From the NCBI GenBank assembly GCA_965226875.1, contig OZ245439.1, forward strand, positions 711,081 to 775,080: a DNA stretch of 64,000 nt. The letters run 5' to 3'. Under the pieces are notes generated by a model that saw only the letters and a program-made list of their open reading frames with translations, had not been told where the DNA came from and did not search any database. The stretch comes from Dehalococcoidia bacterium. GTDB lineage: Bacteria > Chloroflexota > Dehalococcoidia > Lucifugimonadales > UBA3495. Both the position numbers and the translations under genes were made by a program. Positions 6,975 to 46,354 of this stretch are shown in pieces. The number at the start of each line of letters is the position of its first letter. Within the stretch, counting starts at the first letter, position 1.

Positions 6975-7122
6975 CTAAAGCCAAGGTGAAATGTACATAT
7001 CGCTAGACCGCACTATCGGTGCCCTCCCAGTTGGGGCCTGAAGGTGATATGAGGTGCCGTGGAGTCCTTGCGGTCATCGTCAATCTCCCGGAAATGCACA
7101 TCCCACCTTGGTATTGGTTTAG
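6975..7122 (-). repeat. R155 element (TA-flanked TIR element), divergent interior
   Basis: CTAAAGCCAAGGTGAAATGTACAT...ATGCACATCCCACCTTGGTATTGGTTTAG. Termini match the R155 family; the left terminus lacks about 5 nt. Confidence 0.8.
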
Positions 7123-7890: not shown

Positions 7891-7922
7891 GAAATGTAGA
7901 TCCCACCGTGGCTTTAGTTTAG
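7891..7922 (-). repeat. Solo R155 terminus
   Basis: GAAATGTAGATCCCACCGTGGCTTTAGTTTAG equals one R155 end without a partner within 150 bp. Confidence 0.7.
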
Positions 7923-9063: not shown

Positions 9064-9657
9064 ATGCAGTACCTGCCCTCACGGGAAGCCGCCAAGATAT
9101 TGGGCCTCCATCCTCACACCCTCCGACGATACGCCGACGCCGGAATCATCCCCTCCATCAAAACCCAGAGCGGACAACGACGATATGACGTCCAAACCTA
9201 CCTCGGTAACTCCAAACCCAGCTCCACCGTCTGCTATTGCCGGGTCTCCAGCCACAAACAGACCGGCGACCTTCAACGTCAGGTCGCTTTCATGCAGCAA
9301 CACTATCCCGACGCCGAGGTAATCACCGATGTCGCCTCAGGACTCAACTACCGGCGGAAAGGACTTGCGTCCCTACTGGAGCGACTTCATCGCGGAGATA
9401 AACTCACACTTGTGGTTGCCTACCGGGACCGCCTCGCCCGCTTCGGCACCGAGCTCATCGAGCAGATGCTCCAGCAAAACGGTGGCGAACTCCTGGTTCT
9501 CAACCAGCGAGATCTCAGCCCCCCAGAGGAACTCACCCAGGATCTACTCGCCATCCTTACTGTCTTCTCTGCCAGAGCCAACGGACTCCGCAGGTACCGG
9601 AAGGAAATCCAAGAGGATAAGAATCTACCCAGACCGGCAGCAGAAAGCCAAGCTTAA
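9064..9657 (+). CDS. tnpA: IS607-type serine recombinase TnpA (MerR-like HTH plus resolvase catalytic domain)
   Basis: 197 aa: LPSREAAKILGLHPHTLRRYADAGIIP (HTH), VCYCRVSSHKQ (catalytic Ser), VVAYRDRLARFG. Confidence 0.9.
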   Translation: MQYLPSREAAKILGLHPHTLRRYADAGIIPSIKTQSGQRRYDVQTYLGNSKPSSTVCYCRVSSHKQTGDLQRQVAFMQQHYPDAEVITDVASGLNYRRKGLASLLERLHRGDKLTLVVAYRDRLARFGTELIEQMLQQNGGELLVLNQRDLSPPEELTQDLLAILTVFSARANGLRRYRKEIQEDKNLPRPAAESQA

Positions 9658-10767
9658 ACTCTGGTTCGACGCCGCCCGGTTCACCTACAACCGCACCATC
9701 GAACTCCTCAACTCGGACGGAGCCCCAAAAGCCTCCTGGCTCGGGGTCAAGAAGGACATCCTATCCAGTCTCCCCGAATGGACCAAGCCCGCTCCCTATG
9801 AGGTGAAGAGCAACGCCGTCCGAGAGGCCTGCCTGGCGGTCAGCGCGGTCAAGAAATTCAACCGGGAACTTGCCGCCGACCAAGGCAAGGGCATCAGAAA
9901 AGAGCAGACCTATGCGAGAGCACGTTTCCGCTCCCGGAAGAATCCCAGCCAGACCATTTTCATCCACGCATCCGCCCTCAGCCACCGGGGCGTCTATCAC
10001 ACCCTCCTGGGACCACTGAAAAAGAGGGAACCAATACCCCACGCCCACGGGGACGCCAAGCTGACACTGAGGCACCACCAGTACCACCTCAGCGTCCCCT
10101 TCAAAAGAATGGGACCCCACCTGGGTGAGAGCAATCTGCAGCCGAAGGCACCAGACCAAGTCAAAGTGGTTGCCCTCGACCCGGGAGTGAGAAACTTCAT
10201 CGCATGGTTCTCCGAAGACGGCTGCGGAAAGCTGGGAGAAAACGATTTCGGACGAATCCAGAGGCTGTGCCAGCACCAGGACAACCTGTTGTCCCGTGCT
10301 ACGCAGGCGCCGTCAGGAAAACGGCGCAACATGCGCAGGGCCGCCGAAAGAATGACCGTCAGGATTCAGAACCTGATAAATGAGCTCCACCACAAGACCG
10401 CCCGGTACCTCGTGGATAACTTCGACGTCATCCTCCTGCCCGCCTTCAAATCATCCGAAGTCGTGATCAGGGGACATCGCAAGATCAGATCAAAGACCGT
10501 CCGCAACCTGCTCAACTACGCCCATCACCGGTTCAGGAACTTCCTCCAGCACAAGGCTGCCGAAAACGGCAGGACCGTGCTGGTGGTCAACGAGGCCTAC
10601 ACCTCGAAGACCGTGAGCTGGACCGGAGAAATAATCCATAACCTGGGCGGACGCAAAACGGTCAGATCCTCCGATGGACAGAGGATGGACCGGGACATCA
10701 ACGGCGCACGGGGGACTTTCCTTCGTGCTTTGGGAGATACCCCCTTCCTGAGACAACACGTCTCTGG
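9329..10767 (+). pseudogene. tnpB: TnpB (IS607 type), C-terminally truncated; ORF reads through into unrelated DNA
   Basis: Same protein as 44885-46354 up to ...FLRQHVSG. The 676-aa ORF 9329-11359 is a read-through artefact running antisense to the MFS gene. Confidence 0.85.
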
Positions 10768-10795
10768 ACGACATTGCCGGGCGGAAACGGGCTCC

Positions 10796-12000
10796 TCAGC
10801 CGGTGTTCACCCGCAACTGCCTGGCAAACACGGCCATAAGCAGCACGCTGCCGGTCGTGAGAGCGAGACACAGGTAGCCGATTCCCTCGTAGCCCACGCT
10901 GGCCAGAAGAGCGCCGGAGAGCCCGGCCCCAAGCACTCCGCCCACGAAGTTGCCGACACCGATAGTGCTGGCTCCCGTAGCCTTGGATTCTCCGGAATAC
11001 TCCGTCGTGGCAGCGACCATCACTGGCGCCAGGACGCTCAACAAGCCCGATCCCGCCGTTGCCAGGGCCACCGCAGGCCAGAGCCCGAAATCGACGGAGA
11101 AGAAGAGGAATACACAGACACCCCCTGCGGCCGTGGTAATGGCCATCAGTGCGACTCGATAACTCCTCGTGGCCACGAATCCGGCGGCGTAGCTCCCTAT
11201 CACCTGGGCTGCCGCAGCAATCAGCAGCGGCAGGGCCACGAATCCCACGCTCAAATCGTAAGCCTGTATCAAATAGGCGGCGAAGAAGCTGATCAGACCC
11301 CAGTAGGCCAGCCGCTGGGTCACAATCACCGTCAGGGCGACCCGAAAAAAACTCATTGAAAGCAGCGACCAATACCTGGCAAAGAATATGAACTGGCGAC
11401 TGCGTTCCCTGCTGTCCCGGGGATACCAGACCACGCTTAAGAGTAACGCCGTTGCCAGCAACAAACTCGCCAGTACAAAAGTGAACCGCCAGCCCCACAA
11501 GTCCGCGAACAGGGCCACCAGCGGGACGGTGATGGCCGAGGGGTCAACACGACTGTTCCCATAATGCCGCCGACGGCCTGGGCCCTCCTGGCGGGGGAAA
11601 TGATGTCGGACACCACCCCCACCGATGTGGGCGGTATGGTTCCTCCTCCCAATCCGCCCAGCACTCTGAGCGCGAGGAACACCTCGATGTTGGGCGCGAA
11701 GGCCGACCCTAGCACTGAGACCAGGACCATCAGCACCCCTGCGAGAGTCACCGGGCGGCGGCCGAAGGAATCGGCCAGCGGCCCCACGGCGACTATGGAA
11801 ACCGCCAATGCCGCGAAGGACGCCGTATTCAATTGCCCTGAGACTGCCACTGAAACGTCAAGGTCGGTTGCAATCTCAACCAGGAGCGCCGGAACCATCA
11901 CAATCGCGGTTTGGGTGCTTAGAATGGTGAGGGAGAGTACGAAGTAGAACCAGGCCTTGTTTACCTCTTTGCCCTCTGTCTGCGCCGCTTGGGTGGTCAT
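10796..12000 (-). pseudogene. MFS transporter, frameshifted (paralog 1)
   Basis: ORFs 11437-12000 and 10796-11518 together align along the whole length of the intact paralog 12057-13259. The frame breaks near 11540. Confidence 0.8.
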
Positions 12001-16902: not shown

Positions 16903-18147
16903 ATGGTACAAGTCCGGGCGATTCGCTCAGAAGATGACTACGCCGCTGCGCTGGCCCGGATCAACGAACTCATGGACGCACTGTCCGGTCCAGATGGCCA
17001 GATTGAGGACGCGGACAACCCGCACCGGGTAGATCTGGATGCTCTGACCGACCTCGTCGAATTCTATGAGGAGCGGAACCATCCCATCGGCTACCCCGAC
17101 CCGGTTTCCGCCATCAGGTTCCGGATGGACCAGGCCAACCTGACCCACCGCGACCTGGTGCCCTTCATTGGTAGCCGGGCCAAGGTCTCCGAGGTTCTCT
17201 CAGGGAAACGGGCCATTACCATGTCCATGGCCAGGGCACTTCACCAGCACCTGGGAATACCCGCCGAAGTGCTGCTGAGGGAACCAGGAGGCAGTTTGCC
17301 TGAGGATCTACCGAGCATTGACTACTCCAGGTTTCCTCTGAACGACATGGCCAAGGCTGGCTGGATTCCCAGGGTGCGAAACCTGAGAGAGCAAGCCGAG
17401 GAATTGGTAACTGGCCTGATGGAACAGGCTGGAGGGCGGCGGTTTGCTGCCGCTCCCCTATACCGGAAGAACGACAGCCGCAGAATCAACGCCAAGACTG
17501 ACGACTACGCCCTCCGGGCGTGGTGCTGGCGAGTACTGGCACAGGCCAGGGACGATGAGCCTACCGTGGAGTACAACGCCGACGCCGTCACCCCCCAGTT
17601 CATGCGACAGCTGGCGCGTATGAGCGCTCTGGGGAACGGCCCTATACAGGCCAGAGATCTCCTTGGTCAGCACGGGGTGTCCCTGGAGTACGTGCCCCAC
17701 CTACCGAGGACGCACCTGGACGGCGCGGCCCTGCCTTTGCCGGACGGTAGGCCGGTGGTAGGGGTCACTCTGCGGTATGACCGGATAGACAACTTCTGGT
17801 TCACCCTGCTGCACGAGCTTGGCCACGTTGGCTCTCATATGGGCCACTGTGGCGAGGATGCGGGTTTTGTCGACGACCACAGTCTTCGGAGGGTCCAACC
17901 TGAAGGGGCAGACACCTTGGAACAGGAGGCGGACCAGTTGGCCCAGGATGCCCTGATACCCCCCGAGGTATGGGACGACGGCGGCATCCTGGAGGATCCC
18001 AGTCCAATGGCGGTCCTGCAAATGGCATGGGAGGCCCAGGTGCACCCGGCGATCATCGCAGGCCGGATTCGGCATGAGCGGAGCAATTACAGGCTCCTCT
18101 CGCAGTTCGTGGGCACCGGTGAGGTGCGGCGGCAGTTTGTCGACTAA
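16903..18147 (+). CDS. HigA-like HTH antitoxin fused to an ImmA/IrrE-type metallopeptidase domain
   Basis: 414 aa. N-terminal ~120 aa are HigA-like (...SEVLSGKRAITMSMARALHQHLGIPAEVLL). The C-terminal domain has the HEXXH motif LLHELGHVGSH. The stop TAA lies inside the adjacent R155 terminus. Confidence 0.75.
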   Translation: MVQVRAIRSEDDYAAALARINELMDALSGPDGQIEDADNPHRVDLDALTDLVEFYEERNHPIGYPDPVSAIRFRMDQANLTHRDLVPFIGSRAKVSEVLSGKRAITMSMARALHQHLGIPAEVLLREPGGSLPEDLPSIDYSRFPLNDMAKAGWIPRVRNLREQAEELVTGLMEQAGGRRFAAAPLYRKNDSRRINAKTDDYALRAWCWRVLAQARDDEPTVEYNADAVTPQFMRQLARMSALGNGPIQARDLLGQHGVSLEYVPHLPRTHLDGAALPLPDGRPVVGVTLRYDRIDNFWFTLLHELGHVGSHMGHCGEDAGFVDDHSLRRVQPEGADTLEQEADQLAQDALIPPEVWDDGGILEDPSPMAVLQMAWEAQVHPAIIAGRIRHERSNYRLLSQFVGTGEVRRQFVD

Positions 18148-18295
18148 ACCAAAGCCAAGGTGGGATGTACATTTAAGTGGCGATGATGATCAGCCGGGTT
18201 TCGCGGGTTAAATCCTCTCATCCGTACCTGGAGAATGACCCGTCCTCGTCGCTTGTCTCCCACCGTCTGCGCATTTCACCTTGGCTTCGGTTTAG
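18144..18295 (+). repeat. R155 element, subtype a
   Basis: CTAAACCAAAGCCAAGGTGGGATGTACATTT...CTGCGCATTTCACCTTGGCTTCGGTTTAG. Identical to 33605-33756 and inverted at 19525-19676. Confidence 0.9.
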
Positions 18296-19525
18296 TAGAC
18301 CACCATCATTGAAACGATGGCTGGTAAAATGTGAGAGGATGGCAGCCAAAGGAAAAATGTTGGGAAGTGGGGGTGGATGTGATGGTGAAGAAATACCGTG
18401 TGGCGCTGGCTGAGGAGGAGCAACAGGAACTGAAGGGGCTGGTGGGCCGGGGGCGGGCGGCAGCTTACCGGCAGACCCACGCCCGCATCCTGCTGCTCTG
18501 CGATGAGAACCAGGCCAACGGGTCCATGAAGGACGAGGAGATAGCCCGGGCCCTCAAGGTGGGAACCGCCACGGTGGAACGGGTGCGCCGCCGCTGTGTG
18601 GAGGAGAGTCTGGAGAGGTCCCTGGGACGCAAGGAGCAGCTTAACCGCCGCCCCAAGAAGCTGGACGGCCATGATGAAGCCCAGTTGATTGCCTTGGCCT
18701 GCTCCCAACCTCCGGAGGGCCGGGCCTCCTGGACGCTGCAACTGCTGGCGGATCGGCTGGTGGAATGCGAGATAGTGGACAGCATCAGCACCGAAACCGT
18801 GCGCCAGACACTGAAAAAAACGAACTCAAGCCTTGGCTGAAAGAGTGCTGGTGCATCCCGCCACAGGGCAACGCCGAGTTCGTCTGCGCCATGGAGGACG
18901 TGCTGGAGGTCTACCACCGTCAATTCGGGGACAACGAGGTGCTGGTGTGCCTGGACGAAACCAGCAAACAGCTGGTGAAGGAGACCCGCCAGCCCCTCCC
19001 GCCGCAGCCCAGGGCTGCCATGGCGTACGATTATGAATACCAGCGCAACGGAGTGAGCAACCGGTTCATGCTATTCGCCCCCTTGGAGGGGTGGCGGCGG
19101 GTGGAGGTCACCGAGCGACGCACCCGGACCGATTGGGCGCGAGTGGTACGGAAACTGGTGGATGAGGACTACCCCGACAAGGAGCGGATAGTGCTGGTGA
19201 TGGACAACTTGAACACCCATCATCCGGCTTCTCTGCACCAGGCTTTTGAGCCGGCCGAAGCGAGGCGTATCGCTGAACGGCTGGAGATTCATTACACGCC
19301 GAAGCACGGGAGTTGGCTCAATATGGCCGAGATCGAACTGGGAGTTCTGGCCCGGCAATGCCTGGACCGCCGGATTCCCGGGCAGGTAGTCCTGGAACAA
19401 GAGACCAAGGCGTGGCAGAACCAACGAAACCGTGACTCAATACGGGTGGACTGGCGCTTCACCACCAAGGACGCCCGCATCAAACTGAGGTCGCTATACC
19501 CATCACTCCAACGATGACAGACTAC
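18295..19525 (+). mobile_element. IS630-family element type A, copy 1 (1231 bp)
   Basis: Ends GTAGACCACCATCATTGAAACGATGG / CCATCACTCCAACGATGACAGACTAC (imperfect IR), flanked by TA (18293-94, 19526-27). Near-identical copies at 22170-23400 and 27680-28910. Confidence 0.9.
18331..19517 (+). CDS. IS630-family transposase, two frames joined by -1 frameshift at A7 (18814-18820)
   Basis: ORF1 ...VRQTLKK ends 18840. ORF2 continues KKNELKPWLKECWCIPP...DNLNTHH...GSWLNMAEIELGVL. The slippery run is conserved in all A and B copies. Confidence 0.85.
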
Positions 19526-19676
19526 TAAACCGAAGCCAAGGTGAAATGCGCAGACGGTGGGAGACAAGCGACGAGGACGGGTCATTCTCCAGGTACGGAT
19601 GAGAGGATTTAACCCGCGAAACCCGGCTGATCATCATCGCCACTTAAATGTACATCCCACCTTGGCTTTGGTTTAG
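19525..19676 (-). repeat. R155 element, subtype a (inverted)
   Basis: Reverse complement of 18144-18295; shares TA junctions with IS630-A and IS630-B. Confidence 0.9.
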
Positions 19677-20882
19677 TACCGTTTCCAGAAAGTCTTACAA
19701 TCATAAAGAAGATCAGGTAGGCTTGAGTAAAATCCTTTAGCGAGGCCGTACCTGACATGCCTGTCTCCAAATACAAAGTCGAACTGACCCAATCCGAACG
19801 CTCCGCTCTGATTGAAACATCCGGCCGTGGCAAGCCGTTGGCCCGCACGGTAAAGCGGGCCCTTGCGCTGTTGAAAGCTGACGAAGGACTCTTAGACCGC
19901 GAGGTAGCTGAGGCGGTTTCGCTCAGCGCCGCCACTGTTGCCTGAGTGCGGAGACGGTTCGTCGAGGAGGGACTGGAAGCCGCAATCAACGACCGGCCAC
20001 GGTCAGGCCGTGAGCGCAAGCTGAGCGGCAGACAGGAAGCGCACCTCGTCGCCATCGCGTGCAGCAATGCGCCCGAAGGACACACGAACTGGACGCTCCA
20101 TCTGCTGGCGGACAAGGTGGTGGAGCTGGAGTTTGCCGGGAGCATCTCCCTGGAGACGGTGCGCCAGATACTCAAAAAAACGAACTCAAGCCGTGGAAGA
20201 AGAAAGAATGGTGCATTCCCAAGGTGAGCGGGGAGTTCGTCGCCCGGATGGAGGATGTGCTGGACCTGTACCACGAAGAGTATGACCGGGAGCGTCCCGT
20301 GGTATGTTTCGACGAGACCTCCAGGCAGTTGGTCGAGGACGTGAGGCCACCCATCAAAGCCAAGCCCGGACGGGTGGAACGCTATGACACTGAGTACCAG
20401 CGAAACGGGACCCGGAACCTGTTCATGTTCTGTGAACCGAAGGGCGGATGGAGACACGTCGAAGTGACCGAGCGCCGCACTGCTGTGGACTTTGCTCACC
20501 AGATGCGCTGGCTGGTTGACCAGGCGTACCCCCACGCCAGGGTCGTCCGGCTGGTGTTGGACAATCTCAATACCCACAAGTTGGGCTCGCTCTACGAAGC
20601 ATTTGGAGCGTCCGAGGCGCGCCGCATAGCCAAACGCCTAGAGTTTCAACACACACCCAATCACGGAAGCTGGCTGAACATGGCCGAGATCGAGTTGAGC
20701 GTCTTCAGCAGGCAGTGTCTGAACCGCCGGATCGGCGATGAAGCGTTGCTGAAACGGGAGGTCGCAGCGCTCGAACGCGAGCGCAACGATGCTGGCGCCA
20801 TCATAGACTGGCGGTTCTCCACCCGGGACGCTCGCAGTAAGCTCAAACATGTATATCCAATAGAATTAAATTGAAACGGTAC
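19676..20882 (+). mobile_element. IS630-family element type B, copy 1 (1207 bp)
   Basis: Ends GTACCGTTTCC.../...GAAACGGTAC, TA flanks (19674-75, 20883-84). About 90% identical to 40886-42116. Confidence 0.9.
19757..20874 (+). pseudogene. IS630-B transposase with nonsense codon (TGA 19943-19945) plus the family A7 frameshift site (20174-20180)
   Basis: Copy 2 has AGA (Arg) where this copy has TGA. Otherwise colinear. Confidence 0.85.
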
Positions 20883-21032
20883 TAAACTAAAGCCAAGGTG
20901 GGATGTACATTTAAGTGGCGATGATGATCAGCTGGGTTATGCCGGTGAATCCCTCTCATCCGTACTTGGAGAATGACCCGGCTCCGTCGTTTGCCCCCAC
21001 CATCTGCGCATTTCACCTTGGCTTTAGTTTAG
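20882..21032 (+). repeat. R155 element, subtype b
   Basis: CTAAACTAAAGCCAAGGTGGGATGTACATTT...CTGCGCATTTCACCTTGGCTTTAGTTTAG. Confidence 0.9.
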
Positions 21033-21130
21033 TAGTCGAACATCTTTGAAATGAGGGTTAGTTGAGGTTAGCCTGATTGCGTGGCAATATTCGGGAAATG
21101 CTGCTCTCCCGTCAGGCTGCCAATTACTTA

Positions 21131-21990
21131 GAGCCTGTCTACGATCTTTGCAATATGTTAAGTTGAGGCTGTTACCAGAGGGGGTAATCATGTCTCATTC
21201 CTATTCCAGCGACATCAGCCGGGAACAGTTTGCCCGGATTCTTCCCTATTTGGAGTCGGCCCGCCGCCGGACCAAGCCCCGCACCGTGGACCTGTACGAC
21301 GTTTTCTGCGGGGTGCTCTATCTCCTGAAAAGCGGGTGCCAGTGGCGGATGCTGCCTGCGGACTTCCCAGATTGGCGCACCTGCTACAAGTATTTCCGGC
21401 AATGGAGCGAGCGACCCGACCCGGCGAAGTATTCCATTCTGGAGCAGGTCTTAAAAAAAATCGGTTGGCACAGCCCGACGAAGCAATGGTCGGAAAAAAC
21501 GGACCAGCTTCTGTATCGTGGACTCCCAGAGCGTCAAGAACACCGACAGCGCCGAGAACAAGGGCTATGACTCGGGCAAGAAGGTGTCTGGAATCAAGCG
21601 CCACATCGCCGTGGACACTCAGGGGTTGCCCCATGCGATTCACGTGACCACCGCCAACGTTACCGACCGTGCTGGGGCTTTGGCTATGTTTGACCGGCGC
21701 CGGGCCAACCTGAGGCAGGTGCAGAATGTGCTGGTGGATGGGGGATACACCGGGAAACCCTTTGCCACGGCGGTGCAGAGCCTGCTGGGAGCCTCGGTGG
21801 AAGTGGTGAAGCGCAACGAACTGCACACTTTCGTGGTGCTGCCGAAACGATGGGTGGTGGAGCGGTCTTTCGGCTGGCTGGAGAAGTGCCGCCGCCTCTG
21901 GAAGAACTGCGAGAGAAAGCTCAATACCAGCCTGCAAATGGTGGTTCTCGCCTTCGCGGTGCTAATCCTGAAGAGATTGTAAACAGGCTC
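21131..21990 (+). mobile_element. IS5-family (IS427-like) element type a, copy 1 (860 bp)
   Basis: IRs GAGCCTGTCTACGATC / GATTGTAAACAGGCTC; 3-bp direct repeat TTA (21128-30, 21991-93). Identical copy at 31617-32476. Confidence 0.9.
21190..21982 (+). CDS. IS5-family transposase split at an A8 run (21453-21460)
   Basis: ORF1 MSHSYSSDISREQFARILPYLE...CQWRMLP...EQVLKK. ORF2 (+1 frame) KSVGTARRSNGRKKRTSFCIVDSQSVKNTD...DGGYTG...ERSFGWL. An A7 run would give one continuous frame. Confidence 0.8.
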
Positions 21991-22019
21991 TTATACATCA
22001 ATTCAAAGCTGTTGGTCTA

Positions 22020-22170
22020 CTAAACTAAAACCAAGGTGAAATGCGCAGATGGTGGGGGCAAACGACGGAGCCGGGTCATTCTCCAAGTACGGATGAGAGG
22101 GATTCACCGGCATAACCCAGCTGATCATCATCGCCACTTAAATGTACATCCCACCTTGGCTTTAGTTTAG
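22020..22170 (-). repeat. R155 element, subtype b (inverted)
   Basis: Termini and interior match 20882-21032 in reverse. Confidence 0.9.
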
Positions 22171-23400
22171 TAGTCTGTCATCGTTGGAGTGATGGGTATA
22201 GCGACCTCAGTTTGATGCGGGCGTCCTTGGTGGTGAAGCGCCAGTCCACCCGTATTGAGTCACGGTTTCGTTGGTTCTGCCACGCCTTGGTCTCTTGTTC
22301 CAGGACTACCTGCCCGGGAATCCGGCGGTCCAGGCATTGCCGGGCCAGAACTCCCAGTTCGATCTCGGCCATATTGAGCCAACTCCCGTGCTTCGGCGTG
22401 TAATGAATCTCCAGCCGTTCAGCGATACGCCTCGCTTCGGCCGGCTCAAAAGCCTGGTGCAGAGAAGCCGGATGATGGGTGTTCAAGTTGTCCATCACCA
22501 GCACTATCCGCTCCTTGTCGGGGTAGTCCTCATCCACCAGTTTCCGTACCACTCGCGCCCAATCGGTCCGGGTGCGTCGCTCGGTGACCTCCACCCGCCG
22601 CCACCCCTCCAAGGGGGCGAATAGCATGAACCGGTTGCTCACTCCGTTGCGCTGGTATTCATAATCGTACGCCATGGCAGCCCTGGGCTGCGGCGGGAGG
22701 GGCTGGCGGGTCTCCTTCACCAGCTGTTTGCTGGTTTCGTCCAGGCACACCAGCACCTCGTTGTCCCCGAATTGACGGTGGTAGACCTCCAGCACGTCCT
22801 CCATGGCGCAGACGAACTCGGCGTTGCCCTGTGGCGGGATGCACCAGCACTCTTTCAGCCAAGGCTTGAGTTCGTTTTTTTCAGTGTCTGGCGCACGGTT
22901 TCGGTGCTGATGCTGTCCACTATCTCGCATTCCACCAGCCGATCCGCCAGCAGTTGCAGCGTCCAGGAGGCCCGGCCCTCCGGAGGTTGGGAGCAGGCCA
23001 AGGCAATCAACTGGGCTTCATCATGGCCGTCCAGCTTCTTGGGGCGGCGGTTAAGCTGCTCCTTGCGTCCCAGGGACCTCTCCAGACTCTCCTCCACACA
23101 GCGGCGGCGCACCCGTTCCACCGTGGCGGTTCCCACCTTGAGGGCCCGGGCTATCTCCTCGTCCTTCATGGACCCGTTGGCCTGGTTCTCATCGCAGAGC
23201 AGCAGGATGCGGGCGTGGGTCTGCCGGTAAGCTGCCGCCCGCCCCCGGCCCACCAGCCCCTTCAGTTCCTGTTGCTCCTCCTCAGCCAGCGCCACACGGT
23301 ATTTCTTCACCATCACATCCACCCCCACTTCCCAACATTTTTCCTTTGGCTGCCATCCTCTCACATTTTACCAGCCATCGTTTCAATGATGGTGGTCTAC
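22170..23400 (-). mobile_element. IS630-family element type A, copy 2
   Basis: Reverse complement of copy 1; same 1231-bp length; TA flanks. Confidence 0.9.
22178..23364 (-). CDS. IS630-A transposase (two frames, -1 frameshift)
   Basis: ORFs 22855-23364 and 22178-22930 translate identically to copy 1. Confidence 0.85.
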
Positions 23401-23550
23401 TAAACTAAAGCCAAGGTGAAATGCGCAGATGGTGGGGGCAAACGACGGAGCCGGGTCATTCTCCAAGTACGGATGAGAGGGGTTCACCGGCATAACCCAG
23501 CTGATCATCATCGCCACTTAAATGTACATCCCACCTTGGCTTTAGTTTAG
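23400..23550 (-). repeat. R155 element, subtype b (inverted)
   Basis: Same orientation as 22020-22170; a few substitutions. Confidence 0.9.
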
Positions 23551-27604: not shown

Positions 27605-27680
27605 CTAAACCAATACCAAGGTGGAATCTACATAGACCCTGACGCGAATCCTTGCATTTTTCAGCTGGGCTTTGGTCTAG
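27605..27680 (+). repeat. R155 element, internally deleted and degenerate (76 bp)
   Basis: CTAAACCAATACCAAGGTGGAATCTACAT...GGGCTTTGGTCTAG. Confidence 0.65.
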
Positions 27681-28910
27681 TAGACCACCATCATTGAAAC
27701 GATGGCTGGTAAAATGTGAGAGGATGGCAGCCAAAGGAAAAATGTTGGGAAGTGGGGGTGGATGTGATGGTGAAGAAATACCGTGTGGCGCTGGCTGAGG
27801 AGGAGCAACAGGAACTGAAGGGGCTGGTGGGCCGGGGGCGGGCGGCAGCTTACCGGCAGACCCACGCCCGCATCCTGCTGCTCTGCGATGAGAACCAGGC
27901 CAACGGGTCCATGAAGGACGAGGAGATAGCCCGGGCCCTCAAGGTGGGAACCGCCACGGTGGAACGGGTGCGCCGCCGCTGTGTGGAGGAGAGTCTGGAG
28001 AGGTCCCTGGGACGCAAGGAGCAGCTTAACCGCCGCCCCAAGAAGCTGGACGGCCATGATGAAGCCCAGTTGATTGCCTTGGCCTGCTCCCAACCTCCGG
28101 AGGGCCGGGCCTCCTGGACGCTGCAACTGCTGGCGGATCGGCTGGTGGAATGCGAGATAGTGGACAGCATCAGCACCGAAACCGTGCGCCAGACACTGAA
28201 AAAAACGAACTCAAGCCTTGGCTGAAAGAGTGCTGGTGCATCCCGCCACAGGGCAACGCCGAGTTCGTCTGCGCCATGGAGGACGTGCTGGAGGTCTACC
28301 GCCGTCAATTCGGGGACAACGAGGTGCTGGTGTGCCTGGACGAAACCAGCAAACAGCTGGTGAAGGAGACCCGCCAGCCCCTCCCGCCGCAGCCCAGGGC
28401 TGCCATGGCGTACGATTATGAATACCAGCGCAACGGAGTGAGCAACCGGTTCATGCTATTCGCCCCCTTGGAGGGGTGGCGGCGGGTGGAGGTCACCGAG
28501 CGACGCACCCGGACCGATTGGGCGCGAGTGGTACGGAAACTGGTGGATGAGGACTACCCCGACAAGGAGCGGATAGTGCTGGTGATGGACAACTTGAACA
28601 CCCATCATCCGGCTTCTCTGCACCAGGCTTTTGAGCCGGCCGAAGCGAGGCGTATCGCTGAACGGCTGGAGATTCATTACACGCCGAAGCACGGGAGTTG
28701 GCTCAATATGGCCGAGATCGAACTGGGAGTTCTGGCCCGGCAATGCCTGGACCGCCGGATTCCCGGGCAGGTAGTCCTGGAACAAGAGACCAAGGCGTGG
28801 CAGAACCAACGAAACCGTGACTCAATACGGGTGGACTGGCGCTTCACCACCAAGGACGCCCGCATCAAACTGAGGTCGCTATACCCATCACTCCAACGAT
28901 GACAGACTAC
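27680..28910 (+). mobile_element. IS630-family element type A, copy 3
   Basis: 1231 bp, TA flanks; one amino-acid difference (YRRQF vs YHRQF) from copies 1 and 2. Confidence 0.9.
27716..28902 (+). CDS. IS630-A transposase (two frames, -1 frameshift)
   Basis: ORFs 27716-28225 and 28150-28902. Confidence 0.85.
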
Positions 28911-29061
28911 TAAACTAAAGCCAAGGTGAAATGCGCAGATGGTGGGGGTCAAACGACGGAGCCGGGTCATTCTCCAAGTACGGATGAGAGGGATTCACCC
29001 GCGCAACCCAGCTGATCACCATCGCCACTTAAATGTACATCCCACCTTGGCTTTAGTTTAG
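28910..29061 (-). repeat. R155 element, subtype b-like (inverted)
   Basis: Termini conserved. Its TTA (29058-60) supplies the stop codon of the downstream minus-strand gene. Confidence 0.9.
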
Positions 29062-29477
29062 TCCATTTGTTGCAGCACCTCTCCGGATAATTCTGTGATC
29101 TTGTCTATCTTAATGAGGACGGCGACACCCAGACGTTCAGGGTCCCGGTCCAGTTCGGCTTGGACGCAGCGATCCATGACTTCTTGGCGAATGGGACCGT
29201 CTTCGTGGACGGTGGCCTTGCCGTGGAACCGCCACCTCACCCGGTCGGCAGCGTGGGCGTAGTAGACGACGACCTGCGGATTCTCGGCAACGTTGTCCAA
29301 GGCCGACCGCTTGGCCCGCTCCCAATAGGCCAGCGTATCTCTGTCGAAGGCCATCACGCTTCCCTTGGGGCTTATCTGGGGTTCGCCGTCCTTGGAGGCC
29401 GTGCCCACCAGGCAAGAATATCCGTCGGCTAAAGCGCTGTCCAATCGCGATACCATCTCGTCGGTCAAATTGATCAT
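29058..29477 (-). CDS. Pyridoxamine-5-phosphate-oxidase-like (split beta-barrel) family protein
   Basis: 139 aa. LVGTASKDGEPQISPKGS...FDRDTLAYWE pattern is typical of PNPOx-like proteins. Assignment from memory. Confidence 0.55.
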   Translation of the reverse strand: MINLTDEMVSRLDSALADGYSCLVGTASKDGEPQISPKGSVMAFDRDTLAYWERAKRSALDNVAENPQVVVYYAHAADRVRWRFHGKATVHEDGPIRQEVMDRCVQAELDRDPERLGVAVLIKIDKITELSGEVLQQMD

Positions 29478-29789
29478 CGTAGTCTATCTCCTTGGGAGTA
29501 ACGGCAGTTTGTAAGGCTCTGTCCATCGAAACCATCCGTCTTGATGGGGACCAGTATTCGAGAGCACTCTCTGCCATATGTAACTCTTTCCTTGCATCAT
29601 TTCTGGATCCTGGTTTCCGCACATCATGGGAGCGTAGGCCTCGTCGCATTGTGCGGCCCTTGAAGTAAACCAAAGCCAAGGCGGGATGTGCCATTTGCGG
29701 GGATCGGCCGAGCTTCGGCGAGAGTCAGCGTGCCTGCTGGGTTTCCTGATTCCGAAGTGGCCTTCGCCTTTGCCGGGTCTGATTCGCTT

Positions 29790-30131
29790 TCATCGCAGGA
29801 GGGTGCCTATCATCCCCAAAACCTGTTCCACCACTCGCGGAGTTGTTTGGGTTGCTAAACCCGCCTGCCTCGCGCGCCAGTCCAGGCTCTTGATGTGGTC
29901 GGACAGCACCACGCCGGTGATGGCGCCTCCATGCGGGAGGGGTACTTCAAAGGGGTAACCCTTCGCTGCCGTGGTAACCGGACAGAATAGGGCCAAGCCT
30001 GTCCTGTCGTTATAGCTCCTGGGACTCAGGACCAGCGCCGGCCGGCGGCCCGCCTGCTCGGGCCCGGCATGAGGGCTGAAGTTCAGCCAAACGATGTCGC
30101 CTCTGTCGGGAACATAGGGTGCACTCACCAT
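29790..30131 (-). CDS. mazF: MazF/PemK-family toxin
   Basis: MVSAPYVPDRGDIVWLNFSPHAGPEQAGRRPALVLSPRSYN...FCPVTT... Overlaps mazE by 7 nt. Confidence 0.85.
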   Translation of the reverse strand: MVSAPYVPDRGDIVWLNFSPHAGPEQAGRRPALVLSPRSYNDRTGLALFCPVTTAAKGYPFEVPLPHGGAITGVVLSDHIKSLDWRARQAGLATQTTPRVVEQVLGMIGTLLR

Positions 30132-30364
30132 GTTTCGTTGCCTTGGGCTGAGCCTGTATCCCATTCAGAATGCAGGTTATCTGTGGTGACCCGGGACAAC
30201 AATTCATCCAGGTCGTATGCCCTCTTGGTCAGGGTCAAACGTTCACCGTCCGTGGTCATCTCAATTGCCGACCCGACGTGGACGCCCCACTCTTCTGCAA
30301 GGGGTTTTGGTATCCGTACCGCGAGGCTGCTACCCCACCGGGCTACGTGCGATTGCGTTCCCAT
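30125..30364 (-). CDS. mazE: AbrB/MazE/SpoVT-family antitoxin
   Basis: 79 aa; VARWGSSLAVRIPKPLAEEWGVHVGSAIEM is the swapped-hairpin AbrB-type motif. Confidence 0.8.
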   Translation of the reverse strand: MGTQSHVARWGSSLAVRIPKPLAEEWGVHVGSAIEMTTDGERLTLTKRAYDLDELLSRVTTDNLHSEWDTGSAQGNETW

Positions 30365-30546
30365 TTGAGATCCTCACTGTCGCAGATAGATATATAATAT
30401 ATATCCAACTGCGGGCGTGTTGTCCAGCGTGTGATTGCGGGTGCGGAGCAGTGGTACCGCCTGCAATCGAGGGCTGAAAAGCTGCTGCGGCACTTCCAGC
30501 CCCATCGCCAATCCCTCCCTGGTGCACATCTCACCTTGGCTTCGGT

Positions 30547-30927
30547 TTAGGTCGTATCCTCTTCCAAGATGATCTTCAGCAACTGGTCGACCGCACGTTT
30601 GGTCGAACGCCTGTCCGCTGCCAAGCGAGTTTCGTCCAGGTGTCCGTGCAGGAAGTGCTGCTGGAGCTGGGCCGCGGCTTCGAAGTCCTGCCGCCAGCCG
30701 GGCTGGTGTTGTTTGTCCGCCAACCTGTCGGCCACATCTTTCATGTGTTGCTCGCTACAGCATTCCCACCCGTGGACCATTGCCACGGCGATCAGGCCGC
30801 GGGCGAAGGCCCCCCAGAGCATGTCGGCGGCAATCATCTGGTCTGTCATGCGTTCACTCGTCTCGAACCCCTGGTCGGAGAGCTCGACCAGTTCCCTGAT
30901 GCGTGCGGTCTGCTCGTCTGTACTCAT
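30547..30927 (-). CDS. Hypothetical helical protein (possibly HEPN/PaREP1-like)
   Basis: 126 aa; weak resemblance only (...AAAQLQQHFLHGHL...). The stop codon TAA is supplied by the R155-type terminus at 30547-49. Confidence 0.35.
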   Translation of the reverse strand: MSTDEQTARIRELVELSDQGFETSERMTDQMIAADMLWGAFARGLIAVAMVHGWECCSEQHMKDVADRLADKQHQPGWRQDFEAAAQLQQHFLHGHLDETRLAADRRSTKRAVDQLLKIILEEDTT

Positions 30928-33604: not shown

Positions 33605-33756
33605 CTAAACCAAAGCCAAGGTGGGATGTACATTTAAGTGGCGATGATGATCAGCCGGGTTTCGCGGGTTAAATCCTCTCATCCGTACCTGGAGAATGAC
33701 CCGTCCTCGTCGCTTGTCTCCCACCGTCTGCGCATTTCACCTTGGCTTCGGTTTAG
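33605..33756 (+). repeat. R155 element, subtype a
   Basis: Identical to 18144-18295. Confidence 0.9.
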
Positions 33757-34618: not shown

Positions 34619-35326
34619 CTATGACGTAGACGGAGCTCCTACAGGGTCAAGGGTGAGGTCATAGCCGGTGAGATCGCGGATCCGTTCCCACAGTGCATCG
34701 CGGTCTACCTGCAGGTCCTGCCGCATGGACGGCACGTCGTCGATCGGGTCGGTGACGACCACTTCGCATCCGCAGTCGGAATACTGGTCGATGCGGTCAA
34801 GGTCGCTCTGGAAGATGTGGCTCCAGCCGGCGTCGTGCTGGGCGATGGAACGGGCCATCTCCGCCACGGAGTCCCTGGGGTAGACGGCACCGAGGATGGA
34901 CAGGAGCGCTGCGCCGGAGTTCCACAGCAGCCAGTGGGCGTTTCGTCCGTGAACGGTGTTCACGTTGAACTTGCTTGCTGGACGCGGGGGCCAGAACCGG
35001 GGGATGTCGGCCAACATGCGGTTTTTACTGGCCGCCTGACGCAGGCGCTTGGTGGTGATCAGCTCCCACTCGTTGGAGACATCGCCGTCGTGGCGGTAGC
35101 GGTGCTCGTTGCCCGGTTCCTTGCAGAAGACTAGTGCCGTTTCCAGATAGATTTGTTGATATTGGAAAGCTGCCTCCAACTCTGGATTCCTGCTTGCGCG
35201 AGAATGACTAACAGATGAAACAGATATCCGGTATAAGGCATATTCAGGTGGAAACGGTACTAGTTTAAGTTGTAAACCCTGGCCGCGTTCCCACCGGCTA
35301 TCTTGGCCCGTTCCTCCAGGGTGCAT
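34619..35326 (-). CDS. Hypothetical protein; start uncertain
   Basis: ORF only. Its 5-prime 66 nt overlap the upstream gene end. Confidence 0.35.
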   Translation of the reverse strand: MHPGGTGQDSRWERGQGLQLKLVPFPPEYALYRISVSSVSHSRASRNPELEAAFQYQQIYLETALVFCKEPGNEHRYRHDGDVSNEWELITTKRLRQAASKNRMLADIPRFWPPRPASKFNVNTVHGRNAHWLLWNSGAALLSILGAVYPRDSVAEMARSIAQHDAGWSHIFQSDLDRIDQYSDCGCEVVVTDPIDDVPSMRQDLQVDRDALWERIRDLTGYDLTLDPVGAPSTS

Positions 35327-40248: not shown

Positions 40249-40737
40249 TTACGTCAGAAGTTTGTCGGCTAACTCGATGAAGTCGTCCACGATGATGTCG
40301 GGCTGGTACTCCGAGTCTTCGGTGGGGAGCTTGTACCGGTTGACGTAGGCCGCTTTGAAGCCGCAGGCCTGGGCACCCAGGATATCGAAAGCGTGCGCGG
40401 CGACCATCATGATCTCCCCGGGTTCGCACCCCAGCCGCTGTATCGCCTTGCGGTATATCCTTGGCGAAGGCTTGAACGCGCCAACCTGATCCACGGATAT
40501 TATGGCGTCGAACCTTACCGGGACGTTGTTGCCCAGCAGCTCCTCCAAGTACCACTGCTCCCCGTTGGAAAGGGCAATCAGCTTGTAACGCTCCGCCAGC
40601 GACTGCAGCCCTTCAATGGCGTTTCCGTAAGGCTTCAGGCCCTTGTAGACCTCCATAAACTCCTGCACCGCGCCGGGGGTGTAGCTGACGTTGTGCTTCT
40701 TTAGGCAGTAAACGAAGGCCCGGCGGCAGGTCTCTAA
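40249..40737 (-). pseudogene. HAD-superfamily hydrolase (haloacid dehalogenase type II-like), 5-prime truncated
   Basis: ...LSNGEQWYLEELL...VGAFKPSPRIY...MVAAHAFDILGAQACGFKAAYVNR. The open frame runs directly into the R155 terminus at 40734. Confidence 0.65.
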
Positions 40738-40886
40738 ACTAAGGCCAAGGTGGGATCGACATTTCTGAGATGATGACGGCAGGTCAGCGCTGCCAACTAA
40801 AGCTTTACCGTCCGCACATTGAAGTCAGTCCTCCCCCGGTCACCGAGTATCCTTCGAATGCGCATTTCACCTTGGCTTTGGTTTAG
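40734..40886 (+). repeat. R155 element, subtype c
   Basis: Conserved termini. Interior differs from subtypes a and b but is related to 44358-44509. Confidence 0.9.
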
Positions 40887-42116
40887 TACCGTTTCCAGAT
40901 AGATTTACAAGAATATGAGAAGGCAGCCATACTTGGGCATGATCTTTCTGTGGGGGAGTATCCAGACATGGCTGCCATCAAATATAAAGTCGAGCTGGCT
41001 GAATCCGAACGCTCCCGTCTCAATGAGGTTTCCCACCGGGGCAAACCGTCAGTCCGCACCGTCAAGCGGGCGCTGGCGTTGCTCAAAGCGGATGAAGGAC
41101 TTCGGGACGCTGAGATAGCCGGTGCGCTTTTGATCAACGCCGCCACCGTTGCCAGAGTGCGGAAGCGGTTCGTCGAGGAAGGACTTGAGGCCGCCATCAA
41201 TGACAAGCCACGGCCGGGCCGTGAGCGCAAGCTGAGCGGCAGACAGGAAGCGCACCTCGTCGCCATCGCATGCAGCAATGCGCCCGAAGGACACACGAAC
41301 TGGACGCTCCATCTGCTGGCGGACAAGGTGGTGGAGCTGGAGTTTGCCGGGAGCATCTCCCTGGAGACGGTGCGCCAGATACTCAAAAAAACGAACTCAA
41401 GCCGTGGAAGAAGAAAGAATGGTGCACTCCCAAGGTGAGCGGGGAGTTCGTCGCCCGGATGGAGGACGTGCTGGACCCCGTATCCAGTACGGGGCAGGCT
41501 CTTTATCACGAAGAGTATGACCGGGAGCGTCCGGTGGTGTGTTTCGACGAGACCTCCAAGCAGTTGCTCGGGGACGTGAGGCCGCCCGTCAAAGCCAAGC
41601 CCGGACGGGTGGAGCGCTATGACACCGAGTACCAGCGAAACGGGACCCGGAACCTGTTCATGTTCTGTGAACCGAAGGGTGGGTGGAGGCACGTCGAGGT
41701 GACCGGGCACCGCACTGCCGTTGACTTCGCGCACCGGATGAAGTGGCTGGTGGACGAGGCATATTCTGACGCCACGGTGATCCGACTGGTGTTGGACAAT
41801 CTCAACACCCACAAGTTGGGCTCGCTCTACGAAGCGTTTGCACCGTCCGAGGCGCGCCGCATAGCCAAGCGCCTGGAGTTTCACCACACACCCGTTCACG
41901 GAAGCTGGCTGAACATGGCTGAAATCGAGTTGAGCGTATTCAGCAGGCAGTGTCTGAACCGCCGGATCGGCGATGAAGCGTTGCTGAGACGGGAGGTCGC
42001 AGCACTCGAACGCGAGCGCAACGATGCTGGCGCCATCATAGACTGGCGGTTCTCCACTCGGGACGCTCGCAGTAAGCTCAAACATGTCTATCCAATAGAA
42101 TTAAATTGAAACGGTA
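40886..42116 (+). mobile_element. IS630-family element type B, copy 2 (1231 bp)
   Basis: TA flanks (40884-85, 42117-18). Carries a 24-bp in-frame insertion relative to copy 1. Confidence 0.9.
40950..42109 (+). CDS. IS630-B transposase (two frames, -1 frameshift at A7)
   Basis: ORFs 40950-41438 and 41270-42109; no nonsense codon in this copy. Confidence 0.8.
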
Positions 42117-44232: not shown

Positions 44233-44358
44233 GTAGTCCGAAATCTTTGGAATGATGAGTTGATCGGTACAGGACTTTCCCTCGGGCATACTGGGCTTAT
44301 GAAGACGATCCCCAAGCAATCTGGCATTTTACACGTCATTTCAAGGATGTTGGTCTAC
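44233..44358 (+). mobile_element. 126-bp IS630-A-derived MITE (intact)
   Basis: GTAGTCCGAAATCTTTGGAATG...CATTTCAAGGATGTTGGTCTAC; TA flanks (44231-32, 44359-60). Confidence 0.8.
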
Positions 44359-44509
44359 TAAACTAAAGCCAAGGTGGGATCTACATTTCTGAGATGATGA
44401 GAGCAGATCAGCGCTGCCAAGAGAAGCTCTCCCGCCCGCTCATTGAAGCCACTCCGCCCTCGTTGTCAGGTATCCTTCAAATGCGCATTTCACCTTGGCT
44501 TTGGTTTAG
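44358..44509 (+). repeat. R155 element, subtype c-prime
   Basis: Conserved termini; interior related to 40734-40886. Confidence 0.9.
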
Positions 44510-44884: not shown

Positions 44885-46354
44885 CTAACAAACGTTGAGG
44901 TTTGTTGCGATGCTCCCAGAGACGTGTTGTCTCAGGAAGGGGGTATCTCCCAAAGCACGAAGGAAAGTCCCCCGTGCGCCGTTGATGTCCCGGTCCATCC
45001 TCTGTCCATCGGAGGATCTGACCGTTTTGCGTCCGCCCAGGTTATGGATTATTTCTCCGGTCCAGCTCACGGTCTTCGAGGTGTAGGCCTCGTTGACCAC
45101 CAGCACGGTCCTGCCGTTTTCGGCAGCCTTGTGCTGGAGGAAGTTCCTGAACCGGTGATGGGCGTAGTTGAGCAGGTTGCGGACGGTCTTTGATCTGATC
45201 TTGCGATGTCCCCTGATCACGACTTCGGATGATTTGAAGGCGGGCAGGAGGATGACGTCGAAGTTATCCACGAGGTACCGGGCGGTCTTGTGGTGGAGCT
45301 CATTTATCAGGTTCTGAATCCTGACGGTCATTCTTTCGGCGGCCCTGCGCATGTTGCGCCGTTTTCCTGACGGCGCCTGCGTAGCACGGGACAACAGGTT
45401 GTCCTGGTGCTGGCACAGCCTCTGGATTCGTCCGAAATCGTTTTCTCCCAGCTTTCCGCAGCCGTCTTCGGAGAACCATGCGATGAAGTTTCTCACTCCC
45501 GGGTCGAGGGCAACCACTTTGACTTGGTCTGGTGCCTTCGGCTGCAGATTGCTCTCACCCAGGTGGGGTCCCATTCTTTTGAAGGGGACGCTGAGGTGGT
45601 ACTGGTGGTGCCTCAGTGTCAGCTTGGCGTCCCCGTGGGCGTGGGGTATTGGTTCCCTCTTTTTCAGTGGTCCCAGGAGGGTGTGATAGACGCCCCGGTG
45701 GCTGAGGGCGGATGCGTGGATGAAAATGGTCTGGCTGGGATTCTTCCGGGAGCGGAAACGTGCTCTCGCATAGGTCTGCTCTTTTCTGATGCCCTTGCCT
45801 TGGTCGGCGGCAAGTTCCCGGTTGAATTTCTTGACCGCGCTGACCGCCAGGCAGGCCTCTCGGACGGCGTTGCTCTTCACCTCATAGGGAGCGGGCTTGG
45901 TCCATTCGGGGAGACTGGATAGGATGTCCTTCTTGACCCCGAGCCAGGAGGCTTTTGGGGCTCCGTCCGAGTTGAGGAGTTCGATGGTGCGGTTGTAGGT
46001 GAACCGGGCGGCGTCGAACCAGAGTTTAAGCTTGGCTTTCTGCTGCCGGTCTGGGTAGATTCTTATCCTCTTGGATTTCCTTCCGGTACCTGCGGAGTCC
46101 GTTGGCTCTGGCAGAGAAGACAGTAAGGATGGCGAGTAGATCCTGGGTGAGTTCCTCTGGGGGGCTGAGATCTCGCTGGTTGAGAACCAGGAGTTCGCCA
46201 CCGTTTTGCTGGAGCATCTGCTCGATGAGCTCGGTGCCGAAGCGGGCGAGGCGGTCCCGGTAGGCAACCACAAGTGTGAGTTTATCTCCGCGATGAAGTC
46301 GCTCCAGTAGGGACGCAAGTCCTTTCCGCCGGTAGTTGAGTCCTGAGGCGACAT
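44885..46354 (-). CDS. tnpB: TnpB (IS607 type A), complete C-terminus; true start unresolved
   Basis: 489-aa ORF: RIRIYPDRQQKAKLKLWFDAARFTYN, VALDPGVRNF, VILLPAFKSSEVV, VNEAYTSKTVSWTGEII...MDRDINGARGTF. All four zinc-finger Cys positions are substituted. Confidence 0.8.
   Translation of the reverse strand: MSPQDSTTGGKDLRPYWSDFIAEINSHLWLPTGTASPASAPSSSSRCSSKTVANSWFSTSEISAPQRNSPRIYSPSLLSSLPEPTDSAGTGRKSKRIRIYPDRQQKAKLKLWFDAARFTYNRTIELLNSDGAPKASWLGVKKDILSSLPEWTKPAPYEVKSNAVREACLAVSAVKKFNRELAADQGKGIRKEQTYARARFRSRKNPSQTIFIHASALSHRGVYHTLLGPLKKREPIPHAHGDAKLTLRHHQYHLSVPFKRMGPHLGESNLQPKAPDQVKVVALDPGVRNFIAWFSEDGCGKLGENDFGRIQRLCQHQDNLLSRATQAPSGKRRNMRRAAERMTVRIQNLINELHHKTARYLVDNFDVILLPAFKSSEVVIRGHRKIRSKTVRNLLNYAHHRFRNFLQHKAAENGRTVLVVNEAYTSKTVSWTGEIIHNLGGRKTVRSSDGQRMDRDINGARGTFLRALGDTPFLRQHVSGSIATNLNVC

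Follow-up and report, generated by a model that had tools for sequence, protein, structure and literature searches.

Origin of the R155 repeats

Why should a bacterial chromosome segment carry more than a dozen repeats of about 150 bp whose ends are conserved while their interiors differ, and what placed them there? This question is raised by R155, a repeat family in a 64,000-nt stretch of DNA from a Dehalococcoidia bacterium (assembly GCA_965226875.1, contig OZ245439.1, positions 711,081 to 775,080; referred to here as the window, G+C 59.8%), one copy of which (18144-18295) directly follows a gene for an ImmA-like protein (16903-18147). Comparison with related genomes indicates that the R155 repeats are very probably miniature transposable elements with inverted repeats (MITEs), derived from and mobilised in trans by an insertion sequence (IS) of about 1,235 bp that belongs to the IS630 family and resides in uncultured SAR202-like Dehalococcoidia.

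Thirteen R155 loci were found in the window, with the coordinates and lengths that an earlier note on this DNA had given them. A search for a 23-nt pattern of the terminus, tolerating up to 6 substitutions, recovered exactly 25 ends (end sequence CTAAACYAAAGCCAAGGTG) in the 64 kb, all of them belonging to the 13 known loci. With no more than 1 mismatch allowed, the core 12-mer AAAGCCAAGGTG matched 22 times against 0.31 expected, a count that none of 100 shuffles reached, and the family is accordingly real. It comprises ten copies of 148-153 bp, one degenerate copy of 76 bp, one solo end and one 886-bp unit, and both orientations are present. By their interiors the ten copies were assigned to class A (seven copies), class B (two) and class C (one).

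The copy at 18144-18295 (class A1, minus strand; CTAAACCAAAGCCAAGGTGGGATGTACAT...CTGCGCATTTCACCTTGGCTTCGGTTTAG) consists of an element proper, AAC..GTT, at 18147-18292, with TA at 18145-18146 and again at 18293-18294. Its exact inverted copy lies at 19525-19676 (A1, plus strand) and an identical one at 33605-33756 (A1, minus strand). The remaining class A copies, all A2, are located at 20882-21032 (minus), 22020-22170, 23400-23550 and 28910-29061 (all plus), and the class B copies at 40734-40886 and 44358-44509 (both minus). The sole class C copy, 6975-7122 (plus), has 22 unique class C relatives in other Dehalococcoidia loci. All ten had been described as complete; the lengths stand, but the left terminus of 6975-7122 is short by 5 bp (CTAAA-GCC). 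The family is completed by the solo end of IRR type (right inverted repeat) at 7891-7922 (32 bp, plus strand), the degenerate copy at 27605-27680 (minus), whose terminus at 27680 is the variant CTAGAC, and the 886-bp unit at 29665-30550 (minus), which begins with GTAAAC instead of CTAAAC.

An IS630-family element with the same ends

A scan of GTDB, one genome per species, with the terminus AGCCAAGGTGRRATSYRCA gave at least 116 loci, and the matches listed were nearly all in metagenome-assembled genomes (MAGs) of uncultured Dehalococcoidia or the SAR202 cluster. Paired ends in these loci came in two sizes, with at least about 67 pairs near 150 bp and at least about 33 pairs spanning 1,226-1,266 bp. 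The long form, for example the 1,241-bp copy L016:842-2082 (L numbers denote the loci and contigs used for comparison), contains one open reading frame (ORF) of about 387 aa (L016:919-2079) that scored 151.6 bits on the NCBIfam model NF033545 'IS630 family transposase' (cutoff 100), together with 84.5 bits on Pfam PF13358 DDE_3 and 51 bits on HTH_33, and in which 36 residues separate the second D from the E. The left inverted repeat (IRL) and the IRR are identical over their first 19 nt and similar to about 28 nt. The transposase gene occurs either undivided, as an ORF of 385-398 aa, or split into a 96-aa and a 286-aa ORF with a 4-nt overlap. In size (1,226-1,266 bp), terminal inverted repeats and a transposase gene of one or two ORFs the long form is an IS630-family element; the TA duplication typical of that family was observed directly for the MITE, and identical C-TA..TA-G flanks suggest the same for the full-length copies. 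The split arrangement, a 96-aa helix-turn-helix (HTH) ORF followed by a 286-aa HTH_33/DDE_3 ORF, was seen in the copies in L138-L152 (locus positions 1214-2361) and may reflect programmed frameshifting or translational coupling.

The transposase reading frame runs to the very end of this element. Its tail reads ...NAHPTLALV-TAG, where TAG is formed by the final three bases of the GTTTAG terminus, so that the IRR is coding sequence as well. No stop codon lies inside the element: the ORF ends in ...GTT, its stop being made up by the duplicated TA and the target G of CTAG, so that correct termination of the protein hinges on the target site. A flank of the TTAA type, as in L008, would give a TAA stop instead.

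The earlier note had seen no autonomous partner and had proposed searching relatives for a copy enclosing a transposase gene. Its observation holds for the 64-kb window, but such copies exist in many other genomes, including a strain-level relative. This relative, L122, carries a 414-aa gene identical to that of the window and, at the exact site of the window's MITE, a full-length 1,241-bp copy (L122:9242-10482), which places the partner in the window's own population. A 286-aa protein (P0007) that is 95% identical to the L122 ORF was found on at least 22 contigs. Its gene neighbourhoods differed among the 10 places listed, each with a 96-aa HTH ORF overlapping by 4 nt, and these differing contexts point to recent transposition. 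More than 5,700 transposase-related protein clusters from public metagenomes matched at E <= 1e-30, none of the best 120 being named, and no description of the R155 element was found in the literature searched, which did not cover ISfinder.

In GTDB the closest representatives of the window are MAGs of Dehalococcoidia and SAR202, about 77-96% identical to it over the segments they share. Terminus matches also occurred on contigs binned as Tectimicrobiota, Firmicutes, Bacteroidetes, Methylococcaceae, Ectothiorhodospiraceae and Woesearchaeota (L002, L011, L028, L039, L056, L063), among them a near-canonical class A MITE at L011 5796-5947; these off-phylum matches could stem from mis-binning or horizontal transfer.

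Empty and filled target sites

The target of R155 was resolved in strain variants that encode exactly the window's MazF and in which the 1,500 bp upstream of the stop codon of a PNPOx gene are 99.2-100% identical. Three states were observed at this stop codon. In state 0 (L130, L131 and L132) the sequence reads ...AAATGGA-CTAG-ACCAAAGCCC..., with the 76-bp degenerate R155 copy directly after the gene and its terminal CTAAAC mutated to CTAGAC. In state 1 (L137) the neighbouring element IS1 has entered this CTAG, giving ...AAATGGA-C-TA- followed by the start of IS1, GTAGTCTGTC.... In state 2 (the window, L128 and L133-L135) the same junction reads ...AAATGGA-C-TA-(AAC...MITE...GTT)-TA-(GTAGTC...IS1...GGTGGTCTAC)-TA-GACCAAAGCCC. 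The class A2 copy 28910-29061 thus occupies a regenerated CTAG between the PNPOx stop codon and IS1. L137 lacks this copy, and in L129 the same point is taken by a 95%-identical MITE that faces the other way. The pairing of the empty L137 with the filled L128 and window proves that the R155 element proper is AAC...GTT and that it duplicates the TA of CTAG, as had been parsed from the window alone, and the same states show that IS1 also duplicates the TA of CTAG.

A second empty site was recovered across genomes, where L043 reads ...GCATC-CTA(AAC..GTT)TAG-CTTCC... and L098 and L021 read ...GCATC-CTGG-CTTCC.... The search for empty CTAG sites in relatives that the earlier note had suggested was thus productive, although a screen joining both flanks around CTAG over the 116 listed GTDB loci returned nothing, and it was a later single-flank screen, together with the strain contigs, that succeeded. 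Flanks of R155 ends that were met elsewhere without R155 continued with CTAG. Among 252 distinct ends the outer C was present in 97%, the T in 100% and the A in 99%, and in 31% the flank ended in TA immediately before this C, the signature of an adjoining IS end. For IS630 and ISY100 both a duplicated TA target and a preference for CTAG are documented (PMC2170065, citing Tenzen et al. 1990; Tenzen and Ohtsubo 1991).

Insertion into the TAG stop of a C-TAG sequence converts the stop to TAA, so the frame still terminates at the same place. Three window genes end in a TAA made in this way, 16903-18147 (plus strand), 29058-29477 and 30547-30927 (both minus), the first of them through the C-TA-A of 18144-18295. 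A general enrichment of R155 at stop codons was considered and not found convincing: among 156 insertions in other loci, 24 had an ORF of 100 codons or more in the corresponding frame, compared with 7 and 19 for the control frames.

The first of these genes encodes a 414-aa ImmA-like protein that is identical in ten further contigs, all of which have an R155-family element after the stop codon. This element belongs to class A1 in the window, L119, L121 and L123-L126 and to class A2 in L117, L118 and L120; in L122 it is the full-length 1,241-bp element. Downstream content varies, with an IS1-IS1 deletion in L119, a 124-bp IS3-derived MITE in place of IS3 in L124, and truncation in L123 and L125; these downstream differences arose through recombination.

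Relics of a transposase gene inside the MITEs

The ends of the MITEs match those of the IS over 37-52 bp at each end with 83-93% identity, and one MITE subclass aligns with the IS 3' end over 118 bp at about 71% identity. In class A, the frame leading into the terminal TAG reads EVKRRCRIILQARMRG..NVHPTLALV before the stop, compared with EVRRRCRTVLQSRAE..NAHPTLALV in the IS (longer reads of the same frame being, for example, EVKRRCRIILQARMRGLHWRNQANLHRPSNVHPTLALV in class A and EVRRRCRTVLQSRAETLPRDSRPDSQHPANAHPTLALV in the IS, each up to the stop), and class B keeps RGRTDFNVR...NVDPTLALV followed by the stop. Judged from these alignments, class A and class B interiors descend from the transposase gene's 3' end and have since decayed. 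The divergence of class C is too great to say from where it came.

When 65 unique short copies from the fetched loci were clustered, three main interior classes were obtained (35, 22 and 4 unique members), nearly all copies being 151-153 bp long irrespective of class. Three classes had also been recognised in the window, where they were described as unrelated. The number stands; the lack of relationship does not for A and B, which align at 108 of 155 positions and both retain the decayed frame of the transposase C-terminus. R155 copies are therefore short (148-153 bp), free of a transposase, multiple, and bounded by ends that match an autonomous element; they also show presence/absence polymorphism (at the PNPOx site) and share the target duplication of the parent, as expected of bacterial MITEs.

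From these comparisons a mechanism may be proposed. The MITEs retain about 40 bp of the IRL and about 110 bp of the 3' end including the IRR. The transposase of the full-length element would bind the inverted repeats of about 30 bp, in the MITE as in its parent, excise the element, and integrate it at the TA of a CTAG with duplication of the TA, by analogy with the IS630 and ISY100 members of the family; both this biochemistry and the mobilisation in trans are inferred.

Alternative explanations

The distribution of R155 might instead be explained by immobile repeats that act as fixed landing pads or recombination hot spots for other IS elements, strain variation then arising through homologous recombination between copies. 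Most copies do adjoin IS ends, and all strain variants at the ImmA-like gene already hold R155 while the content downstream differs. Recombination products are real, including the IS1-IS1 deletion of L119 and the swapped flanks of L122, L130, L123 and L125, and IS1 did insert at the CTAG made by the degenerate R155 end. However, what separates L128 from L137 is a plain insertion, AAC..GTT with one TA added, at a CTAG that is otherwise the same, the element is reversed in L129, and another empty site exists across genomes (L043 compared with L098 and L021). Moreover, intact R155 ends read CTAA and TTAG, so that they offer no CTAG to an incoming IS, and there is a cognate transposase bounded by these ends. 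Taken together, the paired empty and filled sites largely refute immobile repeats, which we regard as very improbable. Mobile MITEs could also owe their movement to the resident IS1 and IS2 transposases instead of a cognate one, given that IS1 and IS2 are IS630-family members whose ORFs look intact, that they share the CTAG/TA target and that they adjoin MITEs in a window lacking a cognate copy. Their inverted repeats (GTAGACCACC.. and GTACCGTTTCC..), however, share nothing with those of R155, a dissimilarity to the neighbouring termini that had already been remarked on, and each has a derivative MITE type of its own, such as the IS2-derived element at 35134-35260. The cognate IS, by comparison, has near-identical repeats of 27-31 bp and is abundant in the same population, and such cross-mobilisation appears very unlikely.

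The conserved ends could alternatively serve folding, R155 then being a structured element conserved as RNA or DNA, for instance a regulatory RNA or REP-like sequence. Whole copies fold better than shuffled sequences (z = -5.0, -3.3 and -2.7), and their length of 151-153 bp is constant across classes. Classes A and B also have a 5-bp hairpin (columns 67-71 and 83-87, e.g. in the interior of 28910-29061) with double-sided changes in 12 of 40 sequences, located within the relic of the transposase 3' coding region. Against a structured element, Rfam gave no match at gathering thresholds, and the interiors alone fold no better than shuffles (z = -0.1, -0.4 and -0.2). The only structure common to 62 oriented copies in RNAalifold was the terminal-repeat stem, whose 18 pairs are nearly invariant (4 double-sided changes in 1,116 cells). 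The same ends enclose a transposase gene elsewhere, and the IRR is itself coding (..HPTLALV and stop). Folding and covariation thus give no support beyond the pairing of the terminal repeats, in agreement with the earlier preference for transposase ends over RNA; that preference was to fall if the termini never bounded a transposase gene while covariation pointed to an RNA, and we found neither. A conserved structure as the reason for R155 is extremely unlikely.

An integron-like cassette array with R155 as attC-like sites is suggested by the spacing of 1.1-1.4 kb in 18144-23550 and by tyrosine and serine recombinase genes nearby. The CTAAAC/GTTTAG ends also resemble, with one mismatch, the inverse-core and core motifs RYYYAAC and GTTRRRY. 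This reading was rejected, since the copies occur in both orientations, the supposed cassettes are complete IS elements with ends of their own and the TA is duplicated. Recombination of attC with attI makes no TA duplication, as R155 insertion does, and the same ends bound a DDE transposase, which, although no search was aimed at an intI gene, leaves an integron with hardly any likelihood.

Several points nevertheless weigh against mobile MITEs that depend on a cognate IS630-family element. In the 64-kb window tblastn detected only 38-aa C-terminal relics inside the class A copies and no full-length element, and the window's own sample was absent from the best 120 protein hits and from two look-ups for the transposase. 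At the stop of the ImmA-like gene no empty state was seen, every variant found carrying R155. The near-equal length across classes fits a single ancient deletion followed by divergence, and a length constraint is also possible. The excess of R155 beside IS ends, described below, might arise because harmless sites are favoured by selection, because the elements hop locally or because the target is truly preferred. Lastly, the mobility of R155 is deduced from comparison of strain states.

Neighbouring insertion sequences and the formation of arrays

The region 18144-23550 has the order MITE-IS1-MITE'-IS2-MITE-IS3-MITE'-IS1'-MITE', with 23400-23550 at its right end. IS1 (18296-19524, plus strand; 18295-19525 with its G and C end bases) is an IS630-family element with two ORFs, Pfam HTH_32 and DDE_3 domains and 131 bits on NF033545; further copies lie at 22171-23399 (minus) and 27681-28909 (plus), the last being absent from this site in L130-L132. 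IS2 (19677-20881, plus) also belongs to the IS630 family (NF033545, 144.5 bits). IS3 (21033-22019, plus) is a member of the IS5 family (DUF4096 and DDE_Tnp_1; NF033580, 141.7 bits), so that of the three neighbouring types previously assigned to IS630 two are confirmed and the third is reassigned.

IS1, IS2 and IS3 all parse as G...C elements flanked by TA. As they start with G and end with C, each insertion recreates CTAG on both sides. R155, with its AAC and GTT ends, turns CTAG into CTAA and TTAG, which makes it the last occupant of a junction, and repeated regeneration of CTAG followed by R155 filling thereby results in arrays of alternating MITE and IS. This order of events was observed directly at the PNPOx site (state 0 to 1 to 2), and it probably applies elsewhere. 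In the proposed mechanism, G...C elements would multiply the CTAG sites at a locus, insertion at such junctions would be harmless, and each R155 insertion would close one CTAG site.

The window itself contains 43 CTAG sites against 231 expected from base composition, an under-representation of about 5-fold. Most R155 copies touch another IS end with zero spacer (...GTTTAG followed by TAGACCACC or TACCGTTTCC, or ...GGTCTA followed by CTAAAC), a contact that the earlier note had left unmentioned. Such contact was found for 10 of 13 R155 loci in the window, compared with 4 of the 43 remaining CTAG sites; the IS-junction CTAGs at 35131, 35260, 42117 and 63790 are unfilled. Outside the array, the right end of 33605-33756 adjoins an end TAGTTCAGC... 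of the 'GTAGTTC' type, 40734-40886 adjoins an IS2-like element (40887-42116), and the left end of 44358-44509 adjoins an IS-like end, ...GTTGGTCTA. The mutated CTAGAC terminus of 27605-27680 makes the CTAG in which IS1 inserted, and the right flank of the solo end 7891-7922 recurs in L097, where it adjoins another IS630-type end at CTAG. For RUP, too, a link between an IS630-type MITE and other IS elements is on record (PMC2229807).

A second MITE of about 127 bp, unrelated to R155, is located at 35134-35260. Its ends (GTGCCGTTTCC...GGAAACGGTAC) match IS2, it sits in C-TA...TA-G, and both of its junction CTAGs are still unfilled. The 124-bp IS3-derived MITE of L124 (12131-12254) is inverted and, with an R155 copy on either side, stands where the window has the full IS3 (21033-22019). 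In one strain variant an IS66-like end (GTAACTGTTCAGAC...) adjoins an R155 MITE (L118 from 9393 onward; L051 5638-5688), so IS elements that do not target TA join such pile-ups too. The window as a whole is an island of mobile DNA, with IS630, IS5 and IS21 (47220-49478) elements and TnpB/IS605 OrfB genes (9329-11359 and 44885-46354), in addition to serine and tyrosine recombinase genes, higB and the ImmA-like gene. An exact look-up of the TnpB-like gene 44885-46354 returned no contig besides the window's own.

The 886-bp mazEF unit

The 886-bp unit that had been described as bounded by a pair of R155 ends (29665-30550) is indeed so bounded, with 2 and 1 mismatches in its ends, and contains no transposase. 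Its contents are a mazEF pair on the minus strand, mazE at 30125-30364 (Pfam MazE_antitoxin) and mazF/pemK at 29790-30164 (Pfam PemK_toxin). No second location was found among 10 contigs, in all of which its neighbours are the same 126-aa gene on one side and the PNPOx gene on the other; with this one context in every contig found, mobility of the unit is no more than putative, and it could represent two ends that flank resident genes by chance. Mobile insertion cassettes (MICs), such as MIC231 of Bacillus cereus, have IS-type ends around passenger genes. The 886-bp unit resembles them in its IS-type inverted repeats around passenger mazEF genes and its lack of a transposase, but differs in being found in one context only.

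Comparison with known elements and implications

The closest analogue of R155 is the RUP/IS630-Spn1 pair of Streptococcus pneumoniae. RUP is described (PMC2229807, citing Oggioni and Claverys 1999) as a short non-coding MITE whose ends match an IS630-family IS, which inserts at TA and is IS-associated. R155 agrees in all of these features. However, RUP is a 107-bp element of a Firmicute with 9 bp of contiguous terminal repeats, while R155 measures about 152 bp (146 proper) with repeats of about 30 bp. Furthermore, R155 keeps a decayed piece of the transposase 3' end, is nearly exclusive to CTAG (97%) and inserts beside IS ends and not into transposase genes, and the sequences of the two are unrelated.

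The parent element resembles IS630, the Shigella sonnei element for which a preference for the TA in 5'-CTAG-3' is recorded (PMC2170065 and the Tenzen 1990/1991 papers that it cites), and ISY100 of Synechocystis, in its length of about 1.1-1.3 kb, HTH and DDE transposase, terminal inverted repeats and TA duplication. It differs from both in the sequence of its inverted repeats and its Chloroflexota host, in an ORF that runs to the last base and takes its stop from the duplicated TA and the target G, and in the division of the gene into 96-aa and 286-aa ORFs in many population copies. IS5-family MITEs such as MITEPsy1 of Pseudomonas syringae duplicate CTAG or YTAA (PMC3189936). R155 is likewise a small MITE landing in CTAG, but MITEPsy1-type elements duplicate all 4 bp, while R155 duplicates only TA (CTA..TAG flanks with a CTAG empty site).

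It is conceivable, though in our judgement rather unlikely, that two features of this IS lineage are adaptive and not incidental, namely the stop codon supplied by the target and the CTAG-destroying ends, which would serve as caps closing IS trains in a CTAG-depleted genome, and that R155 ends would also be able to move passengers such as mazEF.

R155 is an ordinary kind of bacterial mobile DNA, and knowledge of transposition itself is unchanged by it. For annotation, its recognition gives a name to an abundant and formerly unlabelled repeat of SAR202-like Dehalococcoidia, and provides the parent IS, the limits of the element (AAC..GTT plus TA) and the CTAG target. With three ordered states preserved in near-identical strains, the locus also offers a natural example of how CTAG-regenerating elements build dense IS/MITE pile-ups, which then drive deletions and rearrangements.

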